A stretch of 64,000 nucleotides of DNA, taken from Longimicrobiales bacterium. Its GTDB lineage: Bacteria > Gemmatimonadota > Gemmatimonadetes > Longimicrobiales > Gaopeijiaceae. The stretch lies in NCBI GenBank assembly GCA_965238005.1, contig OZ250165.1, forward strand, positions 640,001-704,000, given 5' to 3'. The notes beneath the pieces are model-generated. The model made no database searches, was not told where the DNA came from, and saw nothing but the letters and a program-made list of their open reading frames with translations. Within the stretch, counting starts at the first letter, position 1. Each line of letters opens with the position of its first letter. The position numbers and the translations under genes were made by a program. Shown here one piece after another: positions 12,601 through 62,163 of this stretch.

Positions 12601-12651
12601 AGTGCCAGGGGTGGAGTTGAACCAGCGACCTCACGCTTATCAGGCGTGCGC
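12601..12651 (-). other. Degenerate tRNA-Ile(GAU) 3' half (att remnant, not a functional tRNA)
   Basis: GCGCACGCCTGATAAGCGTGAGGTCGCTGGTTCAACTCCACC gives anticodon arm and T-arm; 5' half absent. Confidence 0.8.
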
Positions 12652-12786
12652 CGGAGGATATGAATTACGGCAAGAAGTCTTCTAAGTTTAACTGGGACTG
12701 CATGATCTGCCGCTCTTGCCGTTAGACCATATCTGATTCCACCGTACCGAAATAGCGGGAAAACGGCATCAAACAGCGGGAATCCG
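12637..12786 (+). mobile_element. Family A left end
   Basis: Core TTATCAG + 39 nt + TAAGTT, then GGACTGCATGATCTGCCGCTCTTGCCGTT and two GCGGGAA arm repeats; colinear with 29072-29220. Confidence 0.8.
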
Positions 12787-12833
12787 AGCCTGGTGGCATG
12801 AGCGCACGTGTCGACGTCGATGCAGGTGAATTT

Positions 12834-12869
12834 CCTTCAATGAGGCCGGGGCAGATCAGCCCCGGAAAT
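12834..12869 (-). CRISPR. Solitary CRISPR-like repeat resembling type I-G (I-U); no array, no cas genes
   Basis: 36 nt ATTTCCGGGGCTGATCTGCCCCGGCCTCATTGAAGG with 7-bp stem and ATTGAAG 3' end; no second copy seen. Confidence 0.65.
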
Positions 12870-13232
12870 CTACTGGAATGCCGCACATCGACGCGGAGCG
12901 GAGAAGCCGCACGGAAGGTGAGTTCGGCCATTGGTATTCTCTCCTTATCATGTAGGTCACTGGGAGCATCTGCGGGTCGGGGCAAGCCGTGGGACACCAT
13001 CCCAGTTGTTCTCCTCCTTTCTTCGGAGTCGGGACGGCAAACCAAACGGGCCCACGAAGGTATTGGGAGCATCGCCCAAGGCTCGGTCGGGCGCGTGGCG
13101 ATCCGGCGGCGACGCGTCCGTTCAGACTGATTCGTACAGCCTTCGCCGTGATCGTGGAGGTCGGCATCGCCCTCGCAACTACTGGAGCGCCCGAGACCGC
13201 CGCCTTATAGTCGATCCCTCGGACTCGCGCCA

Positions 13233-13649
13233 TCACGGGGTCTGCCAGCGCCGCAGCGACGATACGCCCCCCGCTCTCGAGGCGCGACTCGCGTATCGTT
13301 CGTCCGCCGTCACAAACACACCGCCGAGGCCGAGCGCCACGGCATGGTACGCCACGTCGTAGAATGCGACTCCGTACGTCACAGACAGAGACACAGCCCG
13401 GGTTCTCCACCTCGAGTCCAGCCGTGCCTCCGTCAGGCCGAAATCGGCCAACGATGCGAGCAGCTCGTCAGCGTCATCGGGAAACCGCCTCGCCAGCGTG
13501 TTGCCCATCTCGTAGATCCAGAGCTGGGGAACGACCAGCTCGATGGCTCCCGCCACGGCTTCGTCACGCAACAATAGCGCCGCGTCCTGCTCGTCATTGC
13601 CTGGAAGAACCCACTTGAGAAGGACCGATGCGTCGGGAGTCACGATCAC
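13233..13649 (-). CDS. vapC: VapC-like PIN-domain toxin
   Basis: VTPDASVLLKW, YEMGN, FYDVAYHAVA, FVTADERY; upstream antitoxin appears decayed. Confidence 0.85.
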   Translation of the reverse strand: MIVTPDASVLLKWVLPGNDEQDAALLLRDEAVAGAIELVVPQLWIYEMGNTLARRFPDDADELLASLADFGLTEARLDSRWRTRAVSLSVTYGVAFYDVAYHAVALGLGGVFVTADERYASRASRAGGVSSLRRWQTP

Positions 13650-13868
13650 GACAGCCGTTGCTCCCGCTCCTCGCGTATCCATCGGACAATTTGGTCGGTC
13701 TCGACCGTAGGCAGCCGCGCGCGCAGGGCGTCCATTCGGGCGGAGGCGTCCCGACGTGCGGCAACGCCTGCCCACTCCCGGATCGCAGCGTTTATGGCAC
13801 GTCACGAGAGAGGGGCGTGCTCAGCAGTCGGAGCGGTGGGGATGAAGGACTAGATTCTGAAGGTGGCC

Positions 13869-19707: not shown

Positions 19708-20298
19708 GAGACCGACTCCTTCTTTTCTGTCATGTGTCGTGGGGTGACGGTCTATCCACCGGTGTGGACAGCCGCGCATCACTAACGTTAAACCGCCGGT
19801 TCGGATCCCACCACCTCCGCCCAGCGAACTTCCCTCATGCCAGGCGTCGAGGGCCGGGCTGCCGGTCGGTCGGGGCCTCCCCGGCTTCGGCCCATACGCT
19901 TGGCCGGCTCCTCGCCGTCTGGCGTGACATCGAGGTGACCCGCAGCCGCGCCTTCAATTGGCTGACGGTGACGGGCACGCCGCACGAGCGGTGCGGGCGC
20001 CGGCAGTCCAACGTCGGCGATATCGCCCGCGGCCTCTTACAGGTTGGCGGACTTCGTCCCAATCCCGGTGAACAGCAAGATCGCGGCCATCTCAATCATG
20101 CGGCTATCGATGGCCACGGCCTTGGCCCGCCCGCTGGCGAGCTCGGCCGACGTGGCGCGAGCGGCGACCATGGCGGTGCGGTGGGTCAGCCATCGGCGCA
20201 CCGGCGGCGGGTTTCGGGGGGGCGCACCGGCCGCGCGACCGCTGCCCCGGCAGCGGCGCGGGAAGCTGGGGGTTCGAAGGGGAAGCGGAGCCACCCCT

Positions 20299-20353
20299 CG
20301 CCAGCCCCTGCCGGGGACCCGCGAAGCGTGGCCCCAAAGGGTAGGCTGGCTTA
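20299..20353 (+). promoter_or_regulatory. Orphan ColE1/MOBP5-type oriT, copy 2
   Basis: 53-bp core ending in CTGGCTTA, the ColE1 nic motif. Confidence 0.75.
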
Positions 20354-20740
20354 AGCACCTTAGTCCGCACCGAAGGTGTGGAACTCGAACCCGCCCGTCA
20401 GCACCCCGCGACCCGGACGTGACCACGCGCGCCGTACTTCGGGATTGCCTCATCGCGCGGCGCCAGCACGTACCCGCACGCCCGCGCCGTGGCGACGAGA
20501 TTCCAATCTTCGGATCGCCACGCCGTCATCCGCCGGGTCTTTCTCAGCCCCGCGCGACGCCCAAGGGAGAACCCGTCACGGGTTCCGCGAACGTACCGTA
20601 TGGTCCCGTGTAATCGCGCTAGAAATATACGGGATCACATACGATAGAAACGAGTCAAACCAAAAACTACGACATTATTAAGTAACTATATATCACTTAG
20701 TTACGACGATGTCCGCACATCGTCGATAGCTGCCGCTCCC

Positions 20741-24242: not shown

Positions 24243-25019
24243 CTAGATCGCCAGCTTGAGCACTCGGTTGGGCATTGGACCACCTGGAGCTTCGAGCGCG
24301 TCCGCGAGCCGATAAAGGTCGCGCGGGTGCATGCCGAGCCTTCCGGCATACCAGACCTTGCACTCGAGGCCGTCGATGACGGTCTCCCCGTCTTCGGGAT
24401 AATTTTTGTCGGCGCCGTAGAACAGAAGCGTCTGTCCGCCGTACATCCACCACGTCGCGTACCCGGGCGGATGCGTCGCCTTGAATCTGCTGAATTCCTC
24501 TCGGTCCGCGCGGTGTTCATCCCACGCAACATGCGGAGCAACCCGAATTACGACAAGACCGACCGACGCGGGGACCAGTCCCCAGTCTCCGTGCTGGTCG
24601 TTCCCGGGATCGCGTGAACCATGACTGACGTCCGCCCCCAACCGCTTCAGCCGCTCAGCCCCGGAGAAGAAGGCGTAAACGTCGAGCATCGTCTGAACGA
24701 CGACCGGGAGAAAGATGGGATACGGCGTGTCCTTCACCAGGTTTCCGCCCTTCAGCGACGGCTCCCTGAGCATCGTCGTCGGCTCAGCGAAGTACCTCGT
24801 GTCCATGTAGACGGAGCTGCCGAAACTCTGTCCATACACACCCAGTACGCTCTCAACCGTAGGGTGGTCAGCCCCTAAAGCGTTGATGGGTGCATTCAGA
24901 ACGCCGTCATAGAATCGCCGGTCTACCTCATCGCGGTGCTCATCCTCCAACTCACCGTAGAGGTCTTGCAGGCCATGTCCGACGATCGGTTTTTCCGAGC
25001 GAATCAAGTCTGCCTTCAA
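24243..25019 (-). pseudogene. Hypothetical protein, 5'-truncated, with HEPN-like N-terminal part
   Basis: GHGLQDLYGEL...YMDTRYF; abuts the truncated integrase at about 25020. Confidence 0.45.
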
Positions 25020-26118: not shown

Positions 26119-26412
26119 ATGGACGAGATTCCGAAGTTGTCGAAGAAGGAGGCGGTCATCCTCCACCTCCTTGTGAACCAGGGCAGCATGTATGGCTTGG
26201 AGATGATCCGTGCGAGCGACGAATTGAAGCGCGGCACTGTCTATGTGACTCTGGGCCGGATGGCGGAAAAGGGCTACGTCGAGTCCAACCTGGAGGACGC
26301 ACCCGAGGGCGGAGTCGCTCGGAGAGTCTATCAGGCCACCGGACACGGCAAGCGCGTCCTTAGCTTTTGGGAGCGAATGCGGTCGCTCGCCCCCTCCTGG
26401 AGCACGGCATGA
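26119..26412 (+). CDS. PadR-family transcriptional regulator
   Basis: MYGLEM...GTVYVTLGRM...RRVYQATGHG. Confidence 0.9.
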   Translation: MDEIPKLSKKEAVILHLLVNQGSMYGLEMIRASDELKRGTVYVTLGRMAEKGYVESNLEDAPEGGVARRVYQATGHGKRVLSFWERMRSLAPSWSTA

Positions 26413-27727: not shown

Positions 27728-27736
27728 ACAGATTCC

Positions 27737-42065: not shown

Positions 42066-42096
42066 CCTGGAACGGAACTGGAGGCCGCTGAGCCGG

Positions 42097-44454: not shown

Positions 44455-44456
44455 GA

Positions 44457-49245: not shown

Positions 49246-49363
49246 CCCAGTCGCGCAGGCGATGGTTCCGACGGTCTCTGACCATACGTGGAGCGTACCG
49301 GTCGACGTGCTGCCGTACCTCGGTAAAGCCAGATTCGCGGCGGTGGTGGATGATCCGCTTGGA

Positions 49364-50644
49364 TCAGACCGTCGCCAGCGTGCGTAGAGCGCGCTGCACG
49401 CTACTCTGGGAGCTTGCTGGGGACGCAACGTCGAACGGCACGAAGACGAGCTTCAGGCCGTCGAAGAACCGGGCGGTGAACGGGCTGGTGAAGGCGCCGC
49501 TCCGGGGGTAGACCAGGGCCACGGCCCGGCACTCGTACAGCTTGCCGTAGGCGTAGAGCTGGTACAGGTCGGAGCTGACGATGTCGTGGATCCGGCCGGA
49601 TCCTCCCCTGCCGATGTGCTTCCACTTGGCGTCGAGGATGAACCGGACGGCGTTGGGGGGGTCGCGGAGCGAAATGTCCGGCTTCATCGCGAACACGCGC
49701 TTGCCGCCGATCGAGGCGATGTGCTTCCGTGGCCCTTGGGCGACCACCTGATACTCGGCTTGGTGGCGACGAAAGCTGTGGGTCACGAAGTCCTCGTACA
49801 CTTCCTCCATGGGGAAGAGCAGCGACTGATTGACGTGTCTGCCGGACCAGGTCGCAAGCCCCCGGTTGAAGAGGAAGAGGTCAACCCACTGCATGACCCG
49901 GCCGTAGTGCTGCATGGAGCGATCTATGCTGTGGCTGCGCCAGTCCGCGCGCGGGTCTCGGGTCGCCGGCACCCCGCTGAACGCCGGCCCAAGGTCCGCA
50001 AGCAGCCGCCGGTTGCGTTCGTTGCGCACGATGGGCTTGAGCCTGTCGAGGGTGGTGCGGATGAGCCGGTTGGCGGGGCGGTTGGGGCTCAGCTCGTCGT
50101 GTTCCACGTAGAAGCGTGAACGGTCGATCTGGTTCTCGCGCAGGTGATGCCGGAAGGCGATGCGGCCGCGCAGGAAGGGCAGATTCTCTTGGGTCGCCAC
50201 GTACCGTCGGCCGAGGCCGCCTCGAACCAGCAGGCTGACGTTTTCCAGGAAGAGTCGGACAAATACCTCGAGCATGGGAAAGCGCCGCAGCGTCCGAATG
50301 GCGCTGGGAGGGAGGTTCGCTGCCCTCTTCAGGCCGCGGTAGGCGCGCAGCATCGTTAGGAATGCCTCGCGAGTCTGCTCGTGGCCCGCGTACGCGACCC
50401 CGCCAAAGTCGATCTTGGGCAGGATCTCGACGACTGTGCCGCGCTTCGTGGTGATCGTGCCAACGTAGTTGCTCGCGTGGAGTCTGCCACTCCGGCCAAA
50501 GTGAAGGACCGGGCCGTATCCGTGTTCCTGAAACGCACGTGCATTGTCGTGCGCGAAGGCCTTCAGATCCTCCAGATCGCGCCTGTCGAGCCCGAGTCTG
50601 ATGCGGAACTGCTCGTACTCCCGAATGGTGTAAACACTAGGCAT
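49364..50644 (-). CDS. mcrC: McrC restriction nuclease subunit
   Basis: NYVGTI, EILPKI, LLFPMEEVYE, MKPDI...ILDAKWK, DLYQLYAY. Confidence 0.92.
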   Translation of the reverse strand: MPSVYTIREYEQFRIRLGLDRRDLEDLKAFAHDNARAFQEHGYGPVLHFGRSGRLHASNYVGTITTKRGTVVEILPKIDFGGVAYAGHEQTREAFLTMLRAYRGLKRAANLPPSAIRTLRRFPMLEVFVRLFLENVSLLVRGGLGRRYVATQENLPFLRGRIAFRHHLRENQIDRSRFYVEHDELSPNRPANRLIRTTLDRLKPIVRNERNRRLLADLGPAFSGVPATRDPRADWRSHSIDRSMQHYGRVMQWVDLFLFNRGLATWSGRHVNQSLLFPMEEVYEDFVTHSFRRHQAEYQVVAQGPRKHIASIGGKRVFAMKPDISLRDPPNAVRFILDAKWKHIGRGGSGRIHDIVSSDLYQLYAYGKLYECRAVALVYPRSGAFTSPFTARFFDGLKLVFVPFDVASPASSQSSVQRALRTLATV

Positions 50645-52799
50645 CGATTCGAGACTGATCGTCGCCGGTGTCGGGATTCTCGTCCTGCCGCGGGTTACCA
50701 CCGACTGAGGCGCTCTCGTCGTATATGCGCCGGTACTGGACCGGATCCCGCCACTCCTTCGCCGTCGTAGGAAGCACCTCGTGGATGGCGGTGTCCGGAT
50801 CCAGCAGGCCCTCGTCCACCAGGCCGGACGCGTGCTCGCCGTCCTTCTTCACGACGACGAAAGCCGCGCCGCCCAGCACATGCCGGACCTTCGACCAGTC
50901 GTCGTAGAAGTACTCCAGCAAGAGGGGGAGGATGGCCATTCGGAACTTGTCGGCCAGCGATTCGACATCGTTCACGTTGAAGAGGTAGGTGTGGCCGATC
51001 TGGCGTTCGCGATCCAGGAGCAGCGAGATGCGCCCGTTGATCGCCTTCAGCATCTTGCGAAGGTCGATACCGGCGACGCTATCCGCGATGAGCGGATGAT
51101 CCGGGTTGGGCATCATCTCCACGTGGTCGAACCTGCGCCGTAGGGCGGTGTCGAGAGGAAGAATGGAGCGGTCGGCCGTGTTCATGGTGCCGATGATGTG
51201 CAGGTTGCCCGGAACTCCGAAGCGGTCGCCGGAATAGGGCAACGTGACGGTCGTCTCGTCTTCCTGGCCGAAGCGGCGGGACGGTTCGATCAGCGTGATG
51301 AGCTCGCCGAGGATCTTTGGGATGTTGCCCCGATTGATCTCGTCGATGATGAGGACGTAGGGGCGGTCGGGATCGGCCAGAGCCGCGTCCGCGATTGACC
51401 TGAAAATTCCGGGCCGGAGTTCGTAGCCGATGTCACCGCCCTTCCCGAGCCGGGGCCGGATGCCTTCCACGAAGTCCTCGTAGGAATAGTTCTGGTGGAA
51501 GGTGACCATGGCGATCTGGCCGGTCGCATCCATGGGATTGAAGCGGAGACTGCGGAATTCGGTGCGGTGTTCCTCATTGACTTCATCCGCCTCGATCCCC
51601 TTCACGATGGCCATGGCAAGAGTGGTCGTGCTATAGGTCTTGCCGGTGCCGGGTGGGCCGTAGAGGATTTGGTTGAGCTGGTGGACGGCGGTGGGTGTGG
51701 CGCCGTCCGGTGGTGGCAGCAAATCCACGGTCGCCGAATAGGCGGCGCATTTGGCGAAGGCCTCGTAGGTGCCGCGGCCAGCTCTCGAAAAACGGACCGC
51801 CGGAATGTCGACGGACAGGGGCGCCTGCTTCTTGTTCACCCACAGCACGTGTATTCGACTGTTCCGATGTAGCCGCTCGCTGTAATCGTTACGGTACACG
51901 ATCCCGATCCCACGCCCTTCCTGTCTCCCCGAGCGGACAAGAACGACATCGCCGGGCATGGGTTCGTCGAGCCGGTAATCTTGCTTGAGCCCTGGGAGCA
52001 CCTCGTCTTCCGCAGGCGGTTGCTTGTCTCCGTGTCCACCATGGTAGGCCCAGTTGTTTTCAAGGAAATCGGGCCACCTGTCTTCACTAGCGCTGATCTG
52101 ATACCAGCGATTGCCTTCGCGCGGAAGGGTTCCGCTCGTCCACAGGTAACCGAAGATGTTGATCTCGTAGCACTCGCAGCCGGGGAACGCGGTCTGCACC
52201 GTGCCCATTTCGTCGACGTACTCAGCCCAGGAAATCTCGGCTGGGGACGTGATGAACCTACCGATACCCAGCGGCAATACGGCCTTCGTGTCAAAGGGCA
52301 GAAACGATCTCGGATTGATCAGAAAGAGGACTTGCGTGAGTTTTGGGACACGGACTCCGTTGATCTGCAACATCTTGGCGAAGGTGTCGGCCCTAACGGC
52401 ACCGTACGATGTACCATCGAGGGCGCGCGCTTGGTTGAACATCTCCCAAAGAAGCTCAGGATTAGCTCCGCTGTTGTTGAACCTCACCGCCATCGCGGGC
52501 GGAGTCGGAAGGATAAAGCCGTCGTCGAAGCTGTGGTCGAGGTCGCTCTCGATCCCGAACACTTCCGCGACGCTCCCGTAGATCGTCCCCCTCTTCTCCG
52601 CCTTGCCGCCCGCGATCGACGCAAGATGGTAGAAGAACGTCAGCGGGTCGGCGTTGTCCTCCCCGTTTGCGAGCACGTGGCACGTCCCCCCCACCCAATC
52701 CACCTTCTTCGCCCTCGCCACGAGCCCCTTCCGTCCACCCTCCCCCACCTCTTGGGCTAGCTCCCCAAACCACGGTACCCATTGGAACAGCTCCTTCAT
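50637..52799 (-). CDS. mcrB: McrB AAA+ GTPase
   Basis: ILYGPPGTGKTY, FHQNYSYEDFVEG, IDEINRGN, GTMNTADRS. Confidence 0.95.
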   Translation of the reverse strand: MKELFQWVPWFGELAQEVGEGGRKGLVARAKKVDWVGGTCHVLANGEDNADPLTFFYHLASIAGGKAEKRGTIYGSVAEVFGIESDLDHSFDDGFILPTPPAMAVRFNNSGANPELLWEMFNQARALDGTSYGAVRADTFAKMLQINGVRVPKLTQVLFLINPRSFLPFDTKAVLPLGIGRFITSPAEISWAEYVDEMGTVQTAFPGCECYEINIFGYLWTSGTLPREGNRWYQISASEDRWPDFLENNWAYHGGHGDKQPPAEDEVLPGLKQDYRLDEPMPGDVVLVRSGRQEGRGIGIVYRNDYSERLHRNSRIHVLWVNKKQAPLSVDIPAVRFSRAGRGTYEAFAKCAAYSATVDLLPPPDGATPTAVHQLNQILYGPPGTGKTYSTTTLAMAIVKGIEADEVNEEHRTEFRSLRFNPMDATGQIAMVTFHQNYSYEDFVEGIRPRLGKGGDIGYELRPGIFRSIADAALADPDRPYVLIIDEINRGNIPKILGELITLIEPSRRFGQEDETTVTLPYSGDRFGVPGNLHIIGTMNTADRSILPLDTALRRRFDHVEMMPNPDHPLIADSVAGIDLRKMLKAINGRISLLLDRERQIGHTYLFNVNDVESLADKFRMAILPLLLEYFYDDWSKVRHVLGGAAFVVVKKDGEHASGLVDEGLLDPDTAIHEVLPTTAKEWRDPVQYRRIYDESASVGGNPRQDENPDTGDDQSRIDA

Positions 52800-53945: not shown

Positions 53946-54237
53946 CCGGCCTGCGTGTCATGCCACCACTAGGGCGTGAAAACGACGCGCGGGGTCGATT
54001 CACGACTCGGCCCGGCCCGGATTCACACGCGGCCCACCGCATATGCGCCGACGCCACTGCGTCTTACGCCCCAGCGGCCCGGCCGGACGTGGCCAGACGG
54101 GCCGATGAGGCGGATATGGGAGCGACCCCGCCCGCGGACGCCCTAGTGATGGCGTGGGGGCGTGCGTGTTTTCACACGCGCTGCCCCCGGCGGGGTCGCT
54201 CCCGGTCATCGATCCCTCCGGGAAGGGTGTCGGACCG

Positions 54238-56277
54238 ATGAGGCCCTGGACGCTGGTCATCATCGGGGTGGCCCTGACGGCGGCCACGGTCCGCGCGTTC
54301 CTGGCGCCGTTTCCGGGCATCGGCGGGAACCCCGTGCTGGACCTGATCGCCTACCACGATCCGGGCCTACACACGGTGATCCACGTCTGGTACTACGCGG
54401 CGCCAGCCGTCGCCTTGCTGCTCGCCGGCAGCGTCTGCCTCTCGGTCTCGAGGGTCTGGCTCGAGCCGCGTACCCGGCGCGGCGCTCGCGGGAAGCTCCC
54501 CGCCTGGCCCACCTCGGCCACGGACGAGGCGCCCTCGCTCGTGATCGGCGAACTGCACCATCCGACCGTGCCGCGCGAGAGCGAGCGGCCGTCGTGGCTC
54601 GTCATCCCGGAGAAGGGGCTCTACACCGGCATCCTCATCGTGGGTGCCGTCGGCACCGGCAAGACGACCGCCTGCATGTATCCGTTCGCCCAGCAACTGC
54701 TCTCCCGGCGGGCCGACGAGCCGACCCGCCGCGCGGGCGCGCTCGTGCTCGAAGTCAAGGGGGATTTCTGCCACCAGGTCCGCGGCATCCTCGAAGACGC
54801 CGGGCGCGGGGACGACTACCTCGAGATCGGGCTCGACGGCTCCTGGCAGTGGAACCCGCTCGACGATCCGCTGCTCGATTCCTACTCGCTGGCCTACGGC
54901 GTCGCCTCGCTCATCAACCAGCTCTTCGGCAAGAGTAGAGAACCGTTCTGGCAGCAGGCGTACACGAATCTCGTGCGGTGGATCGTGGAGCTGCACCGGC
55001 TCCTGCCGGGGGGCTGGGTCACGCTCCGGGACATCTACCGCTGCACCGTGGACGCGGAGTTGTTCGCGGGGAAGATCGGCGAGGCCCGCGAGATGGCCGA
55101 CCGGATCTCTCCGGTGGACGCCGTCATCTCCAGCGACGACATGATCGCCCATGCGCAGGCGCTCAAGAAGTGGGACTGGGCGCCGGTGCCCGGCACTGAA
55201 CAGGTGCGCTGCCGGATGGACGCGGAGCTTCGGGCGCAGCTCGCGAAGCACGAAGTCGCATGCGAGGTGGAAGCGGCCGGGGGAGGCGCGGGCGGCGAGT
55301 TCAGGCAGCAGGTCGAGGCCATCGAGCGGTGGTACGTGCACGACTGGACGGTGCTCGACGCCAAGCTCCGCACCTCGATCGTCGAGGGCATCAGCGTCTT
55401 CCTGTCGCTCTTCGACCAGCCCGAGGTCGCCGGCGTGTTCTGTCCGCCGCCGCCGCCCCGAGAGGAGCCTCCCGATGAACCCACGCCGGACGAGAACGAC
55501 GACACCGAAGGCGCTGGCTATCCCATGCCGGGGCTCCGGCGGAGGCTGCCGCCGCTCTCCGATCTGATCGAAGACGGACGGGTCCTCGCGCTCAACATGC
55601 CCGCCGGAGCGAACCCCGCGCTCGCCCGCGCCATCGGCGTGCTGCTCAAGAACGCTTGGATGCAGGCGCTGCTCCGGCGGCCCGCCGAGGCCGCGCGCCG
55701 GCCCGACCGCTACATGCGACCCGCCGTGTTCATCTGCGACGAATACCAGGCGTTCGCCACCGTCGGGCAGGACGACCCTTCGGGCGACGAGAAGGCGTTC
55801 GCGCTCACGCGCCAGTGCCGCTGCATACCCATCGTCGCCACGCAGTCGATCTCCTCGCTCCGCTCCGTGCTGCCCTCGGGCGAGGCGTGGCGCACGCTCG
55901 TCCAGACGCTCCGCACCCGGATCTTCCTGTCGCTTTCCGACGAGGCGTCGGCGCGGGTCGCGTCCGAGATGTGCGGCAGCGTCATGAAGACGCAGGCCTC
56001 CCACACGTTCACCGAGAACACGGGCCGGCCCGAGTTCTCGCTCCTCTCCGGACGCGCCGGAGGCGGACGCGGCACCATCGGCACGAGCAAGTCGTTCCGA
56101 CAGGCCCGCGAGCCGGTGTTCACGCCGCGCGAGTTCTCGCTGCTCGCGAACTACCAGGCGATCTGCCTGCCGTATGACGGGGTCGTGTCGCTCCCCGCAC
56201 GGCGCGTCTACCTCAAGCCCCACTACCTGCCGCGCGAGACGGGCTACTGGCGGCTTCGTGAGGAGGGACGGATATGA
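54238..56277 (+). CDS. VirD4/TraD-like type IV coupling protein
   Basis: Two N-terminal TM helices, GAVGTGKTT, FICDEYQAF, ATQSISSL. Confidence 0.88.
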   Translation: MRPWTLVIIGVALTAATVRAFLAPFPGIGGNPVLDLIAYHDPGLHTVIHVWYYAAPAVALLLAGSVCLSVSRVWLEPRTRRGARGKLPAWPTSATDEAPSLVIGELHHPTVPRESERPSWLVIPEKGLYTGILIVGAVGTGKTTACMYPFAQQLLSRRADEPTRRAGALVLEVKGDFCHQVRGILEDAGRGDDYLEIGLDGSWQWNPLDDPLLDSYSLAYGVASLINQLFGKSREPFWQQAYTNLVRWIVELHRLLPGGWVTLRDIYRCTVDAELFAGKIGEAREMADRISPVDAVISSDDMIAHAQALKKWDWAPVPGTEQVRCRMDAELRAQLAKHEVACEVEAAGGGAGGEFRQQVEAIERWYVHDWTVLDAKLRTSIVEGISVFLSLFDQPEVAGVFCPPPPPREEPPDEPTPDENDDTEGAGYPMPGLRRRLPPLSDLIEDGRVLALNMPAGANPALARAIGVLLKNAWMQALLRRPAEAARRPDRYMRPAVFICDEYQAFATVGQDDPSGDEKAFALTRQCRCIPIVATQSISSLRSVLPSGEAWRTLVQTLRTRIFLSLSDEASARVASEMCGSVMKTQASHTFTENTGRPEFSLLSGRAGGGRGTIGTSKSFRQAREPVFTPREFSLLANYQAICLPYDGVVSLPARRVYLKPHYLPRETGYWRLREEGRI

Positions 56278-57284
56278 AGCGCGCGAGCGGTGTCGGCCAC
56301 CTCACTCCGTTCCTTCCGGGGCTGGGGCCGCTGCTCGAGGACCCCGAGGTCTCCGAGATCATGATCAACGGACCCGGCAACGTCTGGGTCGAGCGGGCGG
56401 GCCGGCTCGAGCCCTACGACGCGCCCGGACTCACCGCCGCTTGGCTCCACCGCGCCGCGATCCACATCGCCCGGCCGCTCGGGCTCGATCCCGCCGCGAG
56501 GCCGATCCTCGACGCCCGGCTCGGCGACGGATCCCGGGTCGCCATCTGCACCCCGCCCGCGGCACCCGAGGTCGCCATCACCATCCGACGGTTCGGGGGC
56601 CGGGCGTTCTCGCCCGACGATCTCGTGCGCCTGGGTTCGCTGCCGGAGGCGGTCTTGCGCGAAGCCAAGAGGGTGCTCCGCGCCCGCAGGAACATCCTCG
56701 TCTCCGGGGGCACCGGCTCGGGGAAGACCACGCTCTTGAACGCGCTGATCGAACTGCTGCCCGAGGACGAGCGGATCGTCGCGATTGAGGACACGCTCGA
56801 GCTCAGGATCGACCGCGCGAACTGCGTCCGCTTCGAGGCCGGGGCCATCGGCTCGGAAGCACCCGTATCGATCCGCGACCTGGTGCGCCACGCGCTCCGC
56901 CACCGGCCCGACCACATCGTCGTCGGCGAGGTCAGGGGCGCCGAGGCCGCCGATCTGCTCCAGGCGCTCAACACCGGGCACGGCGGTTCGCTCACGACCG
57001 TGCACGCGAACAACGCCCGCTCCGCGCTCTCGCGCCTGGCGAGCTGCGCCATGCAGGCCGAGGGCGCGCTCCCCTGGGACGTCACCTGCCGGGGGGTCGT
57101 GGACGGGATCGCGCTCGTGCTCCACATCACCCGGCAACGAGGCAGGCGGTTCGTCGAGGAAGCCATCCAGGTCCAGGGCTACGACGCGGCCACCGGCCGC
57201 TGGGTCACCGAACCGATATCGGGCGGGGCGGCGAAGCCCCGGCAAGAAGAACAGACCTACACACCGAAGGAGGTGAGCGCATGA
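56274..57284 (+). CDS. VirB11/TrbB/CpaF-family secretion ATPase
   Basis: SGGTGSGKTT, IEDTLEL, RHRPDHIVVGEVRGAEA, NTGHGGSLTTVHAN. Confidence 0.93.
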   Translation: MKRASGVGHLTPFLPGLGPLLEDPEVSEIMINGPGNVWVERAGRLEPYDAPGLTAAWLHRAAIHIARPLGLDPAARPILDARLGDGSRVAICTPPAAPEVAITIRRFGGRAFSPDDLVRLGSLPEAVLREAKRVLRARRNILVSGGTGSGKTTLLNALIELLPEDERIVAIEDTLELRIDRANCVRFEAGAIGSEAPVSIRDLVRHALRHRPDHIVVGEVRGAEAADLLQALNTGHGGSLTTVHANNARSALSRLASCAMQAEGALPWDVTCRGVVDGIALVLHITRQRGRRFVEEAIQVQGYDAATGRWVTEPISGGAAKPRQEEQTYTPKEVSA

Positions 57285-57478
57285 CGGGCAACGACAGCAC
57301 CATCCGCGTCGAGACGTTCGAGGACTTCGACCGCGAGCTCGCGCGCGACGGAGGCGAGACCCTCGAGGTCCCGGCCTACCTGGCCGAGCAGTACGGCCTC
57401 TTCCCCGAGGAGGTCGGGAGCGAGGAAGACATCTTGGGCGCCGGCGCCGATCCGCACGGGGAGGAGGTGGACCGATGA
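57281..57478 (+). CDS. 65-aa highly acidic protein
   Basis: ATGA overlaps on both sides; second copy at 21023. Confidence 0.8.
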   Translation: MTGNDSTIRVETFEDFDRELARDGGETLEVPAYLAEQYGLFPEEVGSEEDILGAGADPHGEEVDR

Positions 57479-58503
57479 AGCACGACGAATACCACCGCAA
57501 GTTCGCCGACCGGGTCATCGAGCAGATCCGGCAGGGCACCGCCCCCTGGCAGAAGCCGTGGGCGCCGGGCGAGCGCGTGCTCCCCGCGAACGTGGACACC
57601 GACCGCTCCTATCGCGGCGGCAACAGCCTGCACCTCGCCGCCGTCCAGCAGGAGCGCGGCTACGGCGATGTGCGCTGGGGCACCTACCGCCAGATCCAGG
57701 CCCGCGGCGGGCAGGTCAGGAAGGGCGAGACCGGCACCCGCATCCTCTCCTTCCAGGATCACAAGCGGACCCAAGTCACCGACGAGCGCGGACGGCCCAG
57801 GAGGGACGCCGAGGGCAATCGCGTCTACCGCCACGAGCGACTCAAGGCGCCCTTCGTCCGCCAGTACACCGTGTTCAACGCCGAGCAGGCCGACGGGCTG
57901 CCCGCAAGGTCCACCCCGACGCCTGAGCCGCTCTGGAAGACCCACCAGGAGGCCGAACGGGTGCTCGAAGACGGCGGGGTTCCCGTCCGTCACGTCGCGG
58001 GCGACCGCGCCTTCTACAACCTGAACCGCGACGAGATCATCCTCCCCGAACGGGTGCAGTTCCCCTCGGCCAACCACTACTACCAGACGGCGCTCCACGA
58101 GCTGGGGCACAGCACCGGCCACCCCGAGCGGATGAACCGCGAGACGCTCGTCGAGGGGATCAAGAGCGGGTGCGGATCGCCCGACTACGCGAAGGAGGAA
58201 TTGAGGGCCGAGATCAGCGCCATGATGACGGGCGAGCGCGTGGGCGTCGGCCACGACCCGGCGCGGGGCGCCGCGTACGTCGAGGGCTGGATCGCCGCGC
58301 TCGCGGAGGATCCGCGCGAGATCCGGCGCGCCGCCGCCGACGCGCAGAGGATCTCGGACTTCGTGCTCGTTCGGCACATCGAGCGCGAGGCCGCGAGGGA
58401 ACCCACGGCCGTGGCCGCGGCCCGCGCGCCCGGACCTCAGCGGACCCAAGTTCCCGTGCCGCCGCTCCCGGTCCCCGAGCGCAGCTCCGGGCCGAGCCGC
58501 TGA
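57475..58503 (+). CDS. ardC: ArdC antirestriction ssDNA-binding protein
   Basis: APWQKPW, YRGGN, WGTYRQ, VRKGE, YTVFNAEQ, LHELGHSTG, YAKEELRAE. Confidence 0.92.
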   Translation: MKHDEYHRKFADRVIEQIRQGTAPWQKPWAPGERVLPANVDTDRSYRGGNSLHLAAVQQERGYGDVRWGTYRQIQARGGQVRKGETGTRILSFQDHKRTQVTDERGRPRRDAEGNRVYRHERLKAPFVRQYTVFNAEQADGLPARSTPTPEPLWKTHQEAERVLEDGGVPVRHVAGDRAFYNLNRDEIILPERVQFPSANHYYQTALHELGHSTGHPERMNRETLVEGIKSGCGSPDYAKEELRAEISAMMTGERVGVGHDPARGAAYVEGWIAALAEDPREIRRAAADAQRISDFVLVRHIEREAAREPTAVAAARAPGPQRTQVPVPPLPVPERSSGPSR

Positions 58504-58510
58504 GCAACCG

Positions 58511-59410
58511 ATGAGAGGCAGGGAGATGTTCGACCGCACGGTCGAGGAGGACCCCCGTTCCGCCGCGCCACCCAGCCGCGAGAAGCAACGCATGCGGAAC
58601 GGCCATCGTCGAGAATACGCCGCGAGCCGGGACGGCGGGTCCATCTCCTTCCCCGAACGGTGCGCCCGTGGACTTGCCGATATCGGCGTCTACGGAGCCG
58701 TCTCCTACCGCGACCTCGCCGAGGCCCGCTTCGGGGGACACCCCCACACCACCAAGCGGGCCGTGAACGCCTGGATCCGAGAGGGTCTCGTCACCGAGAC
58801 CCGGGCCACCGGACCCAAGGGCAATCCGTTCAAGGTCCTCTCCCTCACCCGCCAGGGCGTGGCCAAGGCCCGGAAACTCGCCGCCGAACGCGAGATGGAT
58901 CCCGCACAGCAGATCCGGATCGCACGCTCCAGGTCCGCCGAGGCCGCGCACGACACCGCCGTCTACCGCGCCTGCTGGAAGGAACGGCAGCGCCTCGTGG
59001 AACAGGGCGCCACCGTCAAGCGCGTCCGGCTCGACACCGAACTCAAGAGCGCCGTCGCGCGCGCGAGCGAGGCCGCCCGGCTCAAGAACGGCAAGCGGGC
59101 CGCCGATGCCGAACGGCACAGAATCGCCCAAGAGCTCGGCCTCCCCGTCGACGACGAGGGCCGCGTGCTCCACCCGGATGCGCAGATCGAGTACACGGAC
59201 GCCGAAGGCCGGACCGGCCGCGTCAACATCGAGGCCGTCTCCGGCAACTATCGCGAAGGGGCCGTCCGGGCCAAGGCCGCCGCCGGGTTCGCGCTCCACG
59301 CCAACGGGCCGGCCGCCGGGAAACTCCTCGGCAAGCTCGGCCTGGGCGGCGATGGCGGCTCCTGGCTGCGCGGGCCCGCCGACCGCGACCCGGCCGCCGT
59401 CGAACTCTGA
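58511..59410 (+). CDS. Winged-HTH plus PD-(D/E)XK protein, replication-relaxation/relaxase-like
   Basis: LSLTRQG wing, AHDTAV, HPDAQIEY...VNIEAVSGNY. Confidence 0.6.
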   Translation: MRGREMFDRTVEEDPRSAAPPSREKQRMRNGHRREYAASRDGGSISFPERCARGLADIGVYGAVSYRDLAEARFGGHPHTTKRAVNAWIREGLVTETRATGPKGNPFKVLSLTRQGVAKARKLAAEREMDPAQQIRIARSRSAEAAHDTAVYRACWKERQRLVEQGATVKRVRLDTELKSAVARASEAARLKNGKRAADAERHRIAQELGLPVDDEGRVLHPDAQIEYTDAEGRTGRVNIEAVSGNYREGAVRAKAAAGFALHANGPAAGKLLGKLGLGGDGGSWLRGPADRDPAAVEL

Positions 59411-59431
59411 CGACCCGGAGGACTTCAGCCC

Positions 59432-59746
59432 ATGCAACCCTGGAAGATCAGCGCGGGACTCACCGCCGCAATCGCCGGTTCGGCCATGATCCTCGTCGGG
59501 CCGCGCCTCGAATACCTGGCACCGTTCTGGCCGGTCATCCTCGCCGAACACGGCCTCCTGCTCTCCCTTCACCTCGCGTTCGCGCTCGCAACCGTCGCGG
59601 CCGCCATCTACGCCGTCGCGCGCGCCACCGGGCTCGCCGACCTCGGACGCCGCGTCGATCTCGCCGAACGGTCCGTCCGGCGCGGCGCGGGGGATACGGG
59701 CCTCACCGAAGCGCTCCGCAGGGACGCCGAAGGCGACTGGGACTGA
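59432..59746 (+). CDS. Small membrane protein
   Basis: Two to three hydrophobic helices; second copy at 36844. Confidence 0.75.
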   Translation: MQPWKISAGLTAAIAGSAMILVGPRLEYLAPFWPVILAEHGLLLSLHLAFALATVAAAIYAVARATGLADLGRRVDLAERSVRRGAGDTGLTEALRRDAEGDWD

Positions 59747-59752
59747 ACGCGC

Positions 59753-60142
59753 ATGGGAGAGCGAACATCCGTCGAGACACTGCCCGCCAACTGGCGGAGG
59801 CACGCCAAGGCGCTCCGGCGCTACGGGGGCGAGACTCCGGCCACCACGCTCGAAAGCTGCGCCGCCGAACTCGAAGCCACGCTCGTCGAAAGGGACGAGA
59901 CCACCTTCTCGCTGGTCGAAGCCGCCCACGAGAGCGGCTACTCCGCCGACCATCTCGGGCGCCTGGTCCGCGACGGCAGGATCCCCAACGCCGGAAGGCC
60001 CGGCGCGCCCAGGATCGCCCGCACGCACCTGCCCCGGAAGGCCCATGCGCCGGCCGAGCCGCGACTGGCGGAGCAGCCCCGCCGACGCGACGTTTCAAAC
60101 GTGCAGATCGTGCAGTCCATCATCGAAAAAGGAATCGAATGA
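59753..60142 (+). CDS. HTH excisionase-like protein
   Basis: FSLVEAAHESGYSADHLGRLVRDGRIPN; stop overlaps the integrase start. Confidence 0.75.
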   Translation: MGERTSVETLPANWRRHAKALRRYGGETPATTLESCAAELEATLVERDETTFSLVEAAHESGYSADHLGRLVRDGRIPNAGRPGAPRIARTHLPRKAHAPAEPRLAEQPRRRDVSNVQIVQSIIEKGIE

Positions 60143-61302
60143 TGGCACGCACGAAACGAGTCCGGCGCGGCTACAGCGCCGGCGAATGGGGCCGGAACCG
60201 GGTGAGGGTCTTTCCCGATCCCAAGACCGGCTTGTTCCAGATCGAGTGGCGCGAGGGTGGGCGCAGGCTCAGCCGGTCGCTGAAGCACCGCGACTGGAGG
60301 TCGGCGAAGACGCAGGCGGACGAGTTCGCCGCAGGGTTCGCCGGGCCGGAGCTGAACGGCAAGAAGAACGCCGAGCCCGAGCCGCTCACGCTGGGAACGC
60401 TTTTTGACATCTACGGTGAAGAGGTGACGCCCACCAAGGGCCTGAGTTCGCGGCAGCACGATCGCGCTGCGGCGAAGATGTTCCTCGGGTTCCTGGGCAG
60501 GAGCCGCGACCCGGCGACCTTGTCGCAGCGCGACTGGGACCGGTTCATCCGGGCGCGCAGGGCGGGAAGCGTAGGCTCCAGCGGGAGGCCCGTGTCGGAT
60601 CGGATGGTCGAATACGACCTGAGATTTCTGATCTCGGTCCTCAACTGGGCCTCGAGGTCGAGGGACGAGCGGGGCCGCCTGCTCCTCGAGTCGAACCCGC
60701 TGAGGGGCCTGAAGATGCCCATGGAGAAGAACCCCACCCGGGTCGTTCTTTCCGAACACGAGTATCAAGCGCTTCTGAAGGTGTCCCACGAGGTGGATTG
60801 GCGGTTCCATCTCGCGCTCGTGCTCGCGCACGAGACCGGACACCGCATCGGAGCCATCCGCAAGCTCCGGTGGTCCGACATCGACTTGGCACACGAAACC
60901 ATCCGGTGGCGTAGCGAGCACGAGAAGACCGGATACGAGCACCGGACCCCGGTGACCGCTGAAGCAATCGCAGCCTTGGAGCCGGCGCGGGGGCGGAACC
61001 CCGTGACCGGCAGCGCTCCGGTGCTGCCCTCGTCGAGGGACCCCTCGGTGAGTGTCGGCTCCTGGATCTCCCGCGGTTGGTGGAAAAGGGCCGAAGGGCT
61101 CGCAGGTCTGGAGCCGAAACGCGGTCGTGGCTGGCACTCGCTGAGGCGGAAGTTCGCGTCCGATCTCATGGACCAGCCCCTCAAGGTGCTCTGCGAACTC
61201 GGCGGCTGGAAGACGGCCAAGACCGTCCTCCAGTGTTATCAGCGGGCGGACGAGGGACAACTCAGGCAGGCGCTCGCAAACCGCCGGAGAGTTCGGACCT
61301 GA
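60139..61302 (+). CDS. Family A tyrosine integrase, intact, 387 aa
   Basis: R-K-HxxR-W-Y catalytic set as in 39697-40860. Confidence 0.92.
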   Translation: MMARTKRVRRGYSAGEWGRNRVRVFPDPKTGLFQIEWREGGRRLSRSLKHRDWRSAKTQADEFAAGFAGPELNGKKNAEPEPLTLGTLFDIYGEEVTPTKGLSSRQHDRAAAKMFLGFLGRSRDPATLSQRDWDRFIRARRAGSVGSSGRPVSDRMVEYDLRFLISVLNWASRSRDERGRLLLESNPLRGLKMPMEKNPTRVVLSEHEYQALLKVSHEVDWRFHLALVLAHETGHRIGAIRKLRWSDIDLAHETIRWRSEHEKTGYEHRTPVTAEAIAALEPARGRNPVTGSAPVLPSSRDPSVSVGSWISRGWWKRAEGLAGLEPKRGRGWHSLRRKFASDLMDQPLKVLCELGGWKTAKTVLQCYQRADEGQLRQALANRRRVRT

Positions 61303-61394
61303 CCCCATTCGGCGGGAACCGTTTGGCGGGAATCCGACCGGACAGCCTCCTAAGTTCAATGATCACAAACAGATCCGAATCCGAACGCGGATGC

Positions 61395-62163
61395 TGGATC
61401 ATCGAACTGTACCGGCTCTTGCCGGGGGGCTGGGTCACCCTCCAAGACATCTACCGCTGCACGGTGGATGCGGAACTGTTCGGCCGGAAGATCGGCGAGG
61501 CCCGCGAGCTGGCCGACCGGCTCTGCCCGGTGCGGGCCGTCATCGCGACCAGGGATCTCGCCGCTCACAAGGAACCCCTCGGGGAATGGGGCTGGGAGCC
61601 GGTGCCCGGCTCGGACAAGGCGGCTTGCCAGCTCGACCCCGCACTCCGGGACCGGCTCAAGGAACTCAAGGTCGCATACGAGACGGAGGAGAGCGGGGGC
61701 GGAGCGGGCAGTGAGTTCGGCGCGCAGGTCGAGGCCATCGAGCGGTGGTATCTGCATGACTGGATGGCGCTCGACGCCAAGCTCCGCACCTCCATCGTCG
61801 AGGGCATCAGCGTGTTCCTCTCGCTCTTCGACCAGCCGCAGGTCGCCGGCGTGTTCTGCCCGCCGCCACCGGACCCGGATGAATCCATACATATGTATGG
61901 TGCTGCGCCGGACGAGGACGCCGAGGCCGTCCGGCCCATGCCGGGCCTCCGCCGCCGGCTGCCGCCGCTCGCCGAGTTGATCGAGGGCGGCAAGGTCCTC
62001 GCGCTCAACATGCCCGCGGGCGCGAACCCGGCGCTCGGACGCGCGATCGGCGTGCTGCTCAAGAACGCCTGGATGCAGGCGCTGCTGCGGCGGCCCGCCG
62101 AGGCCGCCCGCCGGCCCGGCCGCTACCTCCGGCCCGCCGTGTTCATCTGCGACGAGTACCAGT
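61395..62163 (+). pseudogene. Internal fragment of a second coupling-protein gene
   Basis: WIIELYRLLPGG...FICDEYQ, paralogous to 54978-55749; bounded by two different element ends. Confidence 0.9.

Follow-up and report, generated by a model that had tools for sequence, protein, structure and literature searches.

The window analysed here is a stretch of 64,000 nucleotides (nt) with a GC content of 64.8%, positions 640001-704000 of the single-contig 4.84-Mb genome of a soil/marine-type Gemmatimonadota bacterium. Pfam searches found in it three genes for tyrosine integrases of one family, which belong to three elements named A, B and C below (the coordinates of features are collected in Table 1). 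The best explanation, which we hold to be probable, is a lambda-type integrase family in which the layout of the attachment site on the element (attP) is fixed and the core is specific to each lineage. Under this explanation the whole of 12637-62162 is likely to be a nested, partly decayed stack of integrative, probably mobilizable, elements of the one family. Much of the window is fossil, with a pseudogene for integrase A, mismatched ends of element C and truncated genes for a type IV coupling protein (T4CP), ArdC and a relaxase. Four observations carry the explanation, namely the anatomy of the attachment sites, the reading frame of the mobilization gene mobC that is restored when B is deleted, the recurrence of the same junctions in other genomes, and integrase subclades that follow the core.

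Attachment sites and interrupted genes

The same order of sites follows each of the three integrase genes. Two GCGGGAAYC arm repeats are succeeded by the 11-mer TAAGTTCAATG, by exactly 33 nt and by a 7-nt core, which reads TTATCAG at the end of A, TGGCCCA at the end of B and TGGATCA at the end of C. The motif search found exact copies of the 11-mer at these three ends, one on the minus strand (A) and two on the plus strand, and copies with one mismatch at 35533-35523 and 16708-16698, both on the minus strand. Five matches with at most one mismatch stand against 0.13 expected, and 0 of 100 shuffles reached five. Taken by itself, GCGGGAAYC does not exceed chance significantly, with 8 matches where 3.08 are expected, a count that 2 of 100 shuffles also reached. 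Six of these eight matches, however, come as pairs 14 nt apart, one pair immediately behind the stop codon of each of the three integrase genes. Direct reading of the sequence gave the 33-nt spacing and also placed TAAGTT 39 nt past the core at three left ends (12637, 29072 and, on the minus strand, 35579). A first, sequence-only reading of the window had described this geometry of right and left ends, and the motif search and the direct reading confirm it. The match at 16698, TAAGTTCAGTG, was rejected as an attachment site; it lies inside an Mrr-like open reading frame (ORF) without arm repeats and is a chance match.

The 33-nt segment itself is only partly lineage-specific. In B and C its 14 nt on the arm side are nearly the same and its ~19 nt on the core side differ, so the earlier description of the two as unrelated does not hold. 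The ends also carry direct repeats, TGGCCCA for B and ATCGGCA for a 25.8-kb sibling elsewhere in the genome, and in both cases deletion restores the reading frame of the interrupted gene. As judged from their sequence, a short overlap common to both partners and repeated at the ends, as in lambda, is present here, and the arm repeats, distant from the crossover and with a sequence unrelated to that of the core sites, appear as putative arm-type sites of the lambda kind.

Element B interrupts mobC. When 29079-40959 is deleted, an uninterrupted minus-strand ORF for a 113-amino-acid (aa) MobC/NikA protein with the MobC motif ..ELARIGANLNQIARWANTHKTAAEAVEV.. results. Given this frame and the TGGCCCA repeat, B is an 11.9-kb insertion in mobC, and the placement of the TGGCCCA end inside that gene was correct. 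The identity block of the two ends is the 11-nt TGGCCCAGCGG. The gene is cut within the codons ..NLNQIARWA|N.. and now runs into B, where it ends after 10 foreign codons in place of 38 residues of MobC. Downstream of the 3' part of mobC lies a relaxase-like gene (~27737-28969) that is readable only across a frame change, matches PF03432 weakly (E 0.0095, below the cut-off) and is separated by B from its upstream region and promoter. As B itself lacks mobC, a relaxase gene and a complete T4CP gene, it would depend on the host element. A second lineage, whose integrase is 87% identical to that of B, occupies a different mobC copy, where it is inserted 30 nt farther upstream and points the other way; its core ATCGGCA lies in ..RIG|NNLNQ.., and removing 25,790 bp restores the frame.

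The right end of C abuts the NLVRWII codons of a sibling element's T4CP gene. The flanking fragment has 79% nucleotide and 72% protein identity to 54979-55749, within C's own T4CP gene, and is therefore a T4CP fragment of another related element. The same junction, with a complete C-terminal part of the T4CP, recurs in two other genomes (L008 and L009), in agreement with the earlier proposal that the TGGATCA end lies in a coupling-protein gene. A true TGGATCA left end is present at genome position 794921, flanked by the T4CP codons ..PFWQQAYTNLVR. The overlap register of C is uncertain by ~2 nt, as attP and the intact T4CP copies share GCTGGATC. At the site, C's own T4CP reads TGGATCG TGGAGCTGCAC and the target reads TGGATCA TCGAACTGTAC.

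An unrelated low-GC element family likewise cuts T4CP genes, at genome positions 493187 and 2736168/2750581, and does so at a point (..LHR|..) that lies 12 nt downstream of the C-type site. The same short T4CP stretch is thus used by two integrase clades.

Remnant A points to a tRNA target. Its 33 nt are the reverse complement of the 3' half of tRNA-Ile, and 35573-35612 (the 33 nt and the core) matches without a difference the 3' half of the one tRNA-Ile(GAT) gene in the genome, at genome positions 2838657-2838731 and 2.2 Mb away. Past the core follows a degenerate P arm (P and P' denote the left and right arms), so that 35523-35662 is an attP-form (P'-core-P) or tandem-array junction. The TTATCAG end had been placed in the anticodon loop of tRNA-Ile; the sequence is that of the tRNA 3' half, but it is an element-borne copy at an attP-like junction, and ARAGORN called no tRNA gene in the window. 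From 35613 to 39223 the remnant is colinear with the T4CP-ArdC-...-integrase segment of C apart from a deletion (self-blastn, 94% between 38722-39223 and 54691-54190, and 76-82% between 36203-38723 and 60350-57687). We regard A as probably the dead remnant of a lineage that crossed over in the anticodon loop of tRNA-Ile and brought a replacement tRNA 3' half.

The far side of such an event seems to be preserved at the left border of the mosaic. Around the core, 26 nt match the real tRNA-Ile, and by its sequence the stretch 12600-12636 reads as the chromosomal side of an old anticodon-loop integration. The adjoining left end at 12637 is 78% identical to the left arm 29096-29199. A sister integrase stands directly upstream of the genome's only tRNA-Ile(GAT) at 2838657. 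In that copy the tRNA 5' half makes up the 33 nt, and the core CTGATAA is the same anticodon loop in the opposite orientation. The hallmark of tRNA islands, a tRNA regenerated at the integrase-proximal junction, is seen at genome 2838657 and is absent from the window. The anticodon loop of tRNA-Ile is a hot spot.

Further halves of tRNA-Ile(GAT) were noticed at genome 891136-891177, 4325971-4326015, 2841270-2841312 and 1073251-1073289. Some of them adjoin P arms (891136-891177 and 4325971-4326015), which indicates that the chromosome was rearranged around or between these elements; two adjoin a different repeat type, CGCCCACGAGCGC.

The spacing itself may have a tRNA origin. In lineage A the 33 nt correspond to tRNA positions 39-71, and the 11-mer starts at the tRNA 3' end. 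In the lineages outside tRNA genes the semi-conserved G11, G16, A17 and A18 of the 33-mer are in register with tRNA C61, C56, T55 and T54. This register match, the one line of evidence here, suggests as a hypothesis that the 33-nt spacing might be a vestigial tRNA half. A FastTree phylogeny rooted on a paralogue with 52% identity placed the mobC clade first and not the tRNA lineages, on a long outgroup branch (0.98).

Besides the arm repeats, a 16-mer, GGACTGCACGATCTGC, occurs just past the left-arm 11-mer at both 29130-29145 and 12695-12710. Inverted copies lie at 60103-60118 and ~39660, 25 nt before the integrase ATG, inside the final codons (..QIVQS..) of the HTH_17-like gene that precedes the integrase gene. 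With up to 4 mismatches allowed, nearly all of the 87 loci described below have the inverted 16-mer ~1293 nt ahead of the core. From its position it may be the site of a regulator or an excisionase.

Relatives, targets and a proposed mechanism

When one genome per species was scanned, more than 604 candidate stretches emerged, of which at least 577 were confirmed as relatives; the best 80 of these were analysed. Almost all of the relatives are labelled Longimicrobiales or Gemmatimonadota metagenome-assembled genomes (MAGs). Among 301 Gemmatimonadota genomes 69 have a match at E<=1e-60, and the matches concentrate in two families (27/47 and 13/23); many of these genomes have at least six, counted as matches and not as copy numbers. 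The integrase family is common in Longimicrobiales-type Gemmatimonadota. Right ends were anchored on the second arm repeat, counting 25 + 11 + 33 nt. This gave 87 right ends, from 79 of the 80 fetched loci and 8 of the genome's own copies, with remnant A left out; 86 of them were segmented automatically.

The register holds across the family. GC stands directly before the predicted core in 55 of 86 right ends and one position earlier in 8 more, a 32-nt variant that includes the closest relatives of C, so the spacing in the relatives is 32 or 33 nt. The information profile of the 87 right ends reaches ~2 bits in the arm repeats (GCGGGAAYC pairs, -88 to -61 on the P' side), remains high over the conserved CGTAAgttCAAt, is semi-conserved from -31 to -14 and shows GC at -2/-1. 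Past +9 it is ~0, essentially without conservation. As conservation ends at the predicted core, the element boundary lies there in a fixed register. Arm repeats are present on the P side as well, where 13 left ends carry rGCGGGrAAAC and GGCGGGAATCC at about +115 to +150.

A quick maximum-likelihood phylogeny (IQ-TREE, 80 integrases) shows core groups that are largely monophyletic, with the two lineages of mobC as sister clades and the off-targets in the TGGATCA clade. Collecting homologues and mapping their cores on the integrase tree, as the sequence-only reading had proposed, thus yields subclades that track the core, and its central claim, one integrase family with a conserved attachment-site scaffold and lineage-specific core-proximal sequence, is upheld over the 87 right ends. 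Its list of targets, tRNA-Ile versus conjugation genes, was too narrow. There are ~25 site groups, and tRNA-Ile, mobC and T4CP together make up 9 of the 87 right ends (10 with remnant A added).

For each locus the flanking ORF was chosen by codon-position GC, the choice of the longest ORF having given wrong frames in GC-rich DNA, and 44 of the 78 candidate ORFs were searched with Pfam. The cut genes include T4CP (L008, L009 and the window), MobC (L060, L072 and own copies), HsdM/N6_Mtase (L010, L013), a DUF222-HNH protein (L014), IstB, cut in ..LLVIDEIGYLP (L041; L032 has the same junction sequence), a P4-like integrase cut before its catalytic domain (L049, with the same junction as the genome's own copy at 714485), and the family's own integrase, which lacks its first ~48 codons in 2 of the 87 loci (L019, L029). 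The chromosomal targets are a histone-deacetylase-like gene, a peptidase S9, a PD40 protein, a TonB receptor, a gluconate dehydrogenase subunit and a beta-lactamase-like gene, and locus L040 lies at the 5' end of tRNA-Leu. Several junctions recur. They are mobC in B, the own copy o788 and L072; mobC in sense orientation in the own copy o4829 and L060; T4CP in C, L008 and L009; the P4-type integrase in o714 and L049; and IstB in L032 and L041.

Some sites lie in repeats. The core is CAGCCCG, or CGGCACG or CGGCCCG as its variants, in ~17 loci that adjoin unrelated genes, and in most of them a conserved ~48-nt stretch comes next. The ~48-nt stretch is found inverted in the flanks of the CGGGCYG group, which makes it a repeat element. 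In 11 loci the near-palindromic CGT(T/A)ACG is followed by TCAGGGTT, again beside unrelated genes. An Rfam search of 11 loci with the flanks CAGCCCG|GCGCC.., CGTTACG|TCAGGGTT and CGGGCYG|GCA.. gave 0 hits at E<=0.1.

The repeat element was seen in many Longimicrobiales genomes (L038, L046, L056, L061, L030, L042 and others), cut at two points by the two lineages CAGCCCG and CGGGCYG.

The genome of the window is itself rich in the family. A tblastn search with integrase C found 9 copies of at least 72% identity, two fragments, and one paralogue at 52%. Integrases of lineages with different cores are 75-87% identical, and C and its twin at genome 846964 are 96% identical. Homologues of the left arm occur at 16 places. 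The 7-mer 46 nt upstream of TAAGTT is a known right-end core in several of them, namely TGGCCCA, ATCGGCA (twice), TTATCAG (twice) and TGGATCA. CGCCTCG is common to four other left ends, and two of their flanks read, by motif, as the ..EAAYRRTDLF end of a P4-type integrase. The copy at genome 714485, L049, L015 and these four left ends are sibling lineages in P4-like integrase genes, at two conserved motifs. The left-arm pairs 794921/812831 and 23184/28077 are identical beyond ~+25 nt in the stretch compared and differ in core-proximal sequence and core, which directly supports core-proximal swapping.

The integrase protein shows a matching division. B and C are 78% identical, with the N-terminal 100 residues almost invariant and the variation concentrated at 101-120 and 251-320. 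Across the family residues 1-60, 221-240 and 321-370 are nearly invariant, and 71-80, 101-120, 211-220 and 251-320 are most variable, with peaks at 101-120 and 281-320. R236, K263, H333, R336, W357 and Y367 are invariant in 34 family sequences, and the catalytic domain (PF00589) with these residues marks the protein, on the evidence of its sequence, as a tyrosine recombinase. The AlphaFold model of integrase C has strands at 22-26, 33-39 and 42-47, a helix at 53-66, a low-confidence linker, helices at 85-172 and the catalytic domain, with a mean pLDDT (predicted local distance difference test score) of 71. Its best match in the PDB by Foldseek is full-length lambda Int (1z1b_B, E 1.1e-8, 371 aligned columns). 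Arm-DNA-bind_3 and Phage_int_M, present in the P4-like integrases of the same genome, are absent from the family integrase.

The likely mechanism follows the lambda scheme. The P' side is laid out as integrase stop, two GCGGGAAYC arm repeats, 16 nt, the 11-mer TAAGTTCAATG, 32-33 nt and a 7-bp overlap, and the P side as overlap, 39 nt, a second 11-mer with TAAGTT, the 16-mer and two more arm repeats. The 11-mer is a candidate site for bending or for an accessory protein, and the HTH_17-like protein encoded upstream of the integrase is a candidate excisionase. The constant parts are the arm DNA and the N-terminal, putatively arm-binding part of the integrase. What varies with the lineage is, in the DNA, ~19 nt that flank the overlap on its P' side and ~17-25 nt that flank it on its P side and, in the protein, residues 101-120 and ~251-320. 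With core-proximal DNA and protein regions that vary in this way, each lineage would integrate at its own 15-25-bp target. The integrase would be heterobivalent, its constant arm-binding module holding the variable core-binding and catalytic module over the crossover, and retargeting would need only changed core-proximal attP DNA together with matching changes in the variable protein regions. The elements presumably are, or were, active. Genes of mobile elements, conserved and present in many copies, would give them numerous places to land and let them travel with the host element at its expense.

Gene content of the window

Genes of chromosomal type, among them a TonB-dependent receptor and peptidases, extend to ~12.5 kb, and a mosaic of mobile-element genes occupies 12.6-62.2 kb (Pfam throughout). 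Besides the features in Table 1, the mosaic contains a fourth integrase of a different, P4-like family (24890-26002, Phage_int_M and catalytic domain), three whole or partial copies of ArdC, a type I restriction-modification system, McrBC, an IS3-type insertion sequence (IS) and a PIN gene. The host backbone in the window consists of MobC, the relaxase-like pseudogene, T4CP, a VirB11-like ATPase and ArdC. No VirB4, VirB6 or VirB8-10 was found in the window by Pfam and it has no full type IV secretion system (T4SS); phage genes are likewise absent.

The cargo of C, 42097-52799, is a defence cluster with HsdR, HsdM, HsdS, an M78-peptidase-like gene, DUF4411 and McrBC. A 6.3-kb cargo (29079-35572; 35573-39616), which includes a protein with leucine-rich repeat (LRR) and Big domains (30067-32346), is flanked by the left arm of B on one side and the degenerate P arm of remnant A on the other, the two arms being oriented towards each other. 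The 5' ends of two integrase genes form a 293-bp inverted repeat (36203-36495 and 39908-39616), which ends exactly at the start of the internal deletion of integrase A and hints at a homologous inversion.

Tandem repeats of ~96 bp (88-96% identical) lie at 26472-26941 inside the ORF 26367-27419, which adjoins a PadR-family gene. A ~90-bp repeat (88-91% identical) occurs at 2049-2141, 20256-20363 and 41197-41287. One copy is in the apparently chromosomal part, and the copy directly upstream of the mobC start is a candidate origin of transfer (oriT) or promoter region.

Table 1 Positions of the element ends, integrase genes and interrupted genes (window coordinates)
Feature	Position	Strand	Description
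Displaced, diverged tRNA-Ile(GAT) 3' half	12600-12636	-	Reverse complement reads anticodon stem, T arm, acceptor
Left end	12637-12800	+	Core TTATCAG 12637-12643, 39 nt, TAAGTTTAACT (12683), 16-mer 12695-12710
Arm repeats of left end 12637	~12755-12785	+	AGCGGGAAAAC / AGCGGGAATCC
mobC 3' part	28959-29078	-	Codons 74-113 and stop; frame restoration, tblastn
Element B	29072-40959	+	11.9 kb, in mobC; TGGCCCA at 29072-29078 and 40953-40959
B left (P) arm	29079-29235	+	39 nt, TAAGTTCATAC (29118), 16-mer GGACTGCACGATCTGC 29130-29145, arm repeats
Remnant A attP-form junction	35420-35662	-	Arm repeats 35662-35640; TAAGTTCAATG 35623-35613; 33 nt 35612-35580; core TTATCAG 35579-35573
Remnant A junction past core		-	39 nt, TAAGTTCAACG 35533-35523, then degenerate P arm
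Integrase A pseudogene	35675-36414	-	Residues 1-74 and 215-387 kept (82% and 72% identical to C; tblastn); ORF 35672-36414
Rest of remnant A	36844-39538	-	ArdC-like gene and N-terminal ~180 codons of T4CP (Pfam)
Integrase B	39697-40860	+	387 aa, intact; PF00589 E 7.5e-15
B right (P') end	40870-40959	+	Arm repeats 40870, 40884; TAAGTTCAATG 40909-40919; 33 nt 40920-40952; core TGGCCCA 40953-40959
mobC 5' part	40953-41181	-	NikA-like 1.4e-13, MobC 2e-7 (Pfam); ORF 40921-41181
Element C backbone	54154-60142	+	T4CP 54154-56277, VirB11-like ATPase 56274-57284, ArdC 57475-58503, two unknown genes (Pfam)
HTH_17-like candidate excisionase	59753-60142	+	E 0.0017-0.13 in 8/10 homologues, below Pfam cut-off
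Integrase C	60139-61302	+	387 aa, intact; PF00589 E 1.6e-16
C right (P') end	61312-61401	+	Arm repeats 61312, 61326; TAAGTTCAATG 61351-61361; 33 nt 61362-61394; core TGGATCA 61395-61401
Target T4CP fragment	61395-62162	+	Equivalent to residues ~276-533; truncated at ~62162

Alternative explanations and comparison with known systems

Several points weigh against the explanation given above. The exact 7-nt overlap is not pinned, with identity blocks of 11 nt (B) and 8 nt (C). Of the three integrases whose relatedness had been claimed, the family membership stands, but integrase A is a pseudogene that has lost residues 75-214 and matches PF00589 with its C-terminal piece. The host relaxase looks frameshifted. 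No left end of C is present in the window, where the five other plus-strand TGGATCA sites have no TAAGTT at +39, so C cannot excise as it stands. All five uninterrupted T4CP copies read TGGATCG and not TGGATCA. Integrases 96-97% identical to C sit in T4CP, in HsdM and in a flank without an assigned gene, the T4CP and HsdM flanks both starting with TGGATCATCGA, and a more distant member of the TGGATCA clade (84% identical to C) adjoins a tetratricopeptide-repeat (TPR) gene; such varied flanks indicate that the specificity is short and leaky. The N-terminal domain has no Pfam match and is modelled with moderate confidence (pLDDT ~67). The relatives are the best-scoring loci, classified at their right ends only and with five core positions set by hand. 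The genome is a single-contig MAG, in which misjoins at repeats are not fully excludable, and no recombination, excision circle or empty site of these copies was seen in public contigs.

Among the alternatives, the one that survives best is that the insertions act as a reversible switch or as hitch-hikers, which we regard as possible although not the likelier case. The elements would be carried and co-regulated with their host element, and precise excision would restore the gene when transfer is induced; in this way they would time their own mobilization, like the helper-embedded phage-inducible chromosomal islands (HE-PICIs) in prophage late genes. The perfect MobC frames that result from deleting B or its 25.8-kb sibling agree with it, as does the lack in B of its own mobC, relaxase and complete T4CP. 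There is a published precedent of the same logic in the available text on HE-PICIs (PMC10111431), and a review of integrative and mobilizable elements (IMEs) discusses, in the part available, cis-mobilization from within integrative and conjugative elements (ICEs) (PMC5704250). The public contigs give no evidence of excision. We compared 27000-43000 with four of six public runs, all available as contigs, which cannot show rare excision. The sole joint across B runs from 29081 to 40985 with 22 other letters between and a 21-letter side, in 3 runs of 2 studies. It was rejected as excised B and is a diverged, uninterrupted mobC allele from the community; an uninterrupted allele with TGGCCCA at the site is present in public metagenome contigs. 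Many host genes are broken and have decayed further (the frameshifted relaxase, truncated T4CPs, mismatched ends), and integrase genes, IstB, HNH, the repeat element and chromosomal genes are also targeted, where a transfer switch would make no sense.

Somewhat less credible, and in our view unlikely, is a parasitism directed at rivals, in which insertion was selected for knocking out the transfer genes of related competitors and the invader keeps a target-free allele. MobC is indeed truncated, and the relaxase is cut from its promoter. At least four mobC loci of the genome are interrupted at one of two sites, a fifth probably at genome 2770033, against three hits that are uninterrupted or partial; the family's own integrase gene is among the targets; and C's own T4CP differs from its target at the site (TGGATCG against TGGATCA). 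The G at core position 7, however, is shared by all five uninterrupted T4CP copies, including copies unlinked to a C-type integrase, so that 'immunity' is inseparable from ordinary allele variation, and self-immunity of C's own T4CP allele was dropped as a candidate. Many of the targets (HsdM, the repeat element, peptidases) are not rival functions either.

An ordinary tRNA-island integrase family with accidental secondary sites in mobC and T4CP is improbable. The use of secondary sites is real in the TGGATCA clade, with its T4CP, HsdM and TPR flanks and the TGGATCATCGA common to the first two, and a more remote relative at 52% identity adjoins a tRNA. But the same junctions recur in independent genomes (mobC, T4CP, P4-type integrase, IstB), each site has its own core-proximal P' sequence and its own integrase subclade, and the P' arm of the lineages outside tRNA genes no longer carries tRNA sequence.

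That the nesting is an artefact of misjoined repeats in a long-read MAG is the least probable alternative, even though the elements occur in several copies, their repeated regions (integrase, ArdC, attachment sites) are places where public contigs break, and a run of ten G at 29231-29240, like the frameshifts, hints at homopolymer errors: two independent insertions have matching direct repeats of 7-11 nt and exact frame restoration, identical junction types occur in other assemblies, and a public contig of 3,557 nt covers 32042-35598 with no difference. The G run and the frame change of the relaxase gene may reflect either real decay or homopolymer errors of long reads.

The lambda-type family with a fixed attP layout thus remains the preferred explanation. 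A broader version of it can be put forward only tentatively, as a Gemmatimonadota-specific radiation in which one lambda-like clade, its attP scaffold frozen, was repeatedly re-aimed at short motifs that are conserved in backbone genes of other mobile elements. Its targets would be MobC (two sites), T4CP, P4-type integrases (two sites), the family's own integrase, the helper ATPase of IS21, DUF222-HNH and the multi-copy repeat element. If true, the nesting of mobile elements in one another would be systematic, and the family would be a natural library linking two variable protein regions to ~25 core sites.

In lambda and HK022, the subject of specificity-swap work, a conserved arm scaffold is combined with changed core recognition and a changed overlap. 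The predicted fold and domain order of the family integrase resemble those of lambda Int. As in lambda, both arms have their arm repeats at a distance from the crossover, and an intervening site stands where lambda has its sites for integration host factor (IHF). The 7-bp overlap must match the partner, and close relatives differ in core recognition and keep their arms, as lambda and HK022 do. Unlike in lambda, the arm and 11-mer motifs are of unrelated sequence, and the protein similarity is marginal (phmmer E 0.003, in the catalytic domain only). Where lambda and HK022 are one pair of phages, ~25 site groups are found here within 70-87% protein identity, known from sequence alone. The HK022 overlap is promiscuous, according to the available portion of PMC7736782.

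The HE-PICI integrases (Tommasini, Mageeney and Williams 2023) form, in the text available, a single clade that uses 14 sites within late genes of prophages and has a doubled arm motif 81 +/- 2 and 132 +/- 2 bp from the crossover (PMC10111431). As described there, subclades respect the integration site, and new sites arise repeatedly inside the genes of another mobile element. The family studied here likewise has subclades that track the site (quick tree) and an arm motif at a fixed distance (87 right ends). The hosts of HE-PICIs are, by the same account, lambdoid prophages in Gram-negative enterics, with induction experiments. Here the hosts are of mobilizable or conjugative type, the targets also include integrase genes, IstB, tRNAs and chromosomal sites, and motifs and distances differ. 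With no phage genes and a different domain set, the family does not belong to the HE-PICIs, and the analogy is functional.

Nested composites are known from Firmicutes, where IMEs lie inside the traG/VirD4, Maff2 and SNF2 genes of Tn5252-superfamily ICEs and IME_oriT are known as well, mostly with serine recombinases (PMC5704250, as far as the available text goes). Site-specific insertion inside a coupling-protein gene or beside relaxosome functions is common to both, and here the conserved transfer genes of resident elements that are hit are mobC and T4CP. The hosts in the window show T4CP, the VirB11-like ATPase, MobC and the relaxase-like gene, without a full T4SS. In contrast to the several unrelated integrase families of the Firmicute IMEs described in that text, one tyrosine-integrase clade supplies all sites here, and in a different phylum. 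With tRNA islands of the Islander type (PMC4383910, in the part available) the family shares a crossover in the 7-nt anticodon loop, a replacement tRNA half and a displaced fragment at the far end. It differs from them in that two sister lineages use the loop in opposite orientations (3' half and 5' half) with the same 33-nt spacing, and in that most other lineages have left tRNA genes altogether. A literature search, judged by title and the start of the abstract, found no papers on such elements in Gemmatimonadota, and none on this integrase family.

The ~25 cores on one arm scaffold, with integrases 70-87% identical, form a ready data set on how integrases read their core sites. It allows ~40 bp of DNA specific to each lineage to be matched to the variable regions 101-120 and ~251-320, a pairing relevant to the design of integrases with a chosen site. 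Insertions of the family explain many of the split mobC, T4CP and integrase genes in these genomes.

The window had been proposed as a candidate for an undescribed system, a claim that gives way before the retargeting of lambda and HK022, the published HE-PICI clade and the ICE-nested IMEs, as represented in the texts available for the latter two. The family is a natural example of a known way in which integrases change their target, and not a new mechanism. It extends nesting in transfer genes, documented mainly in Firmicutes and, for prophages, in enterics, to an understudied phylum, and it adds integrase genes and IS helper genes to the genes that can be hit.

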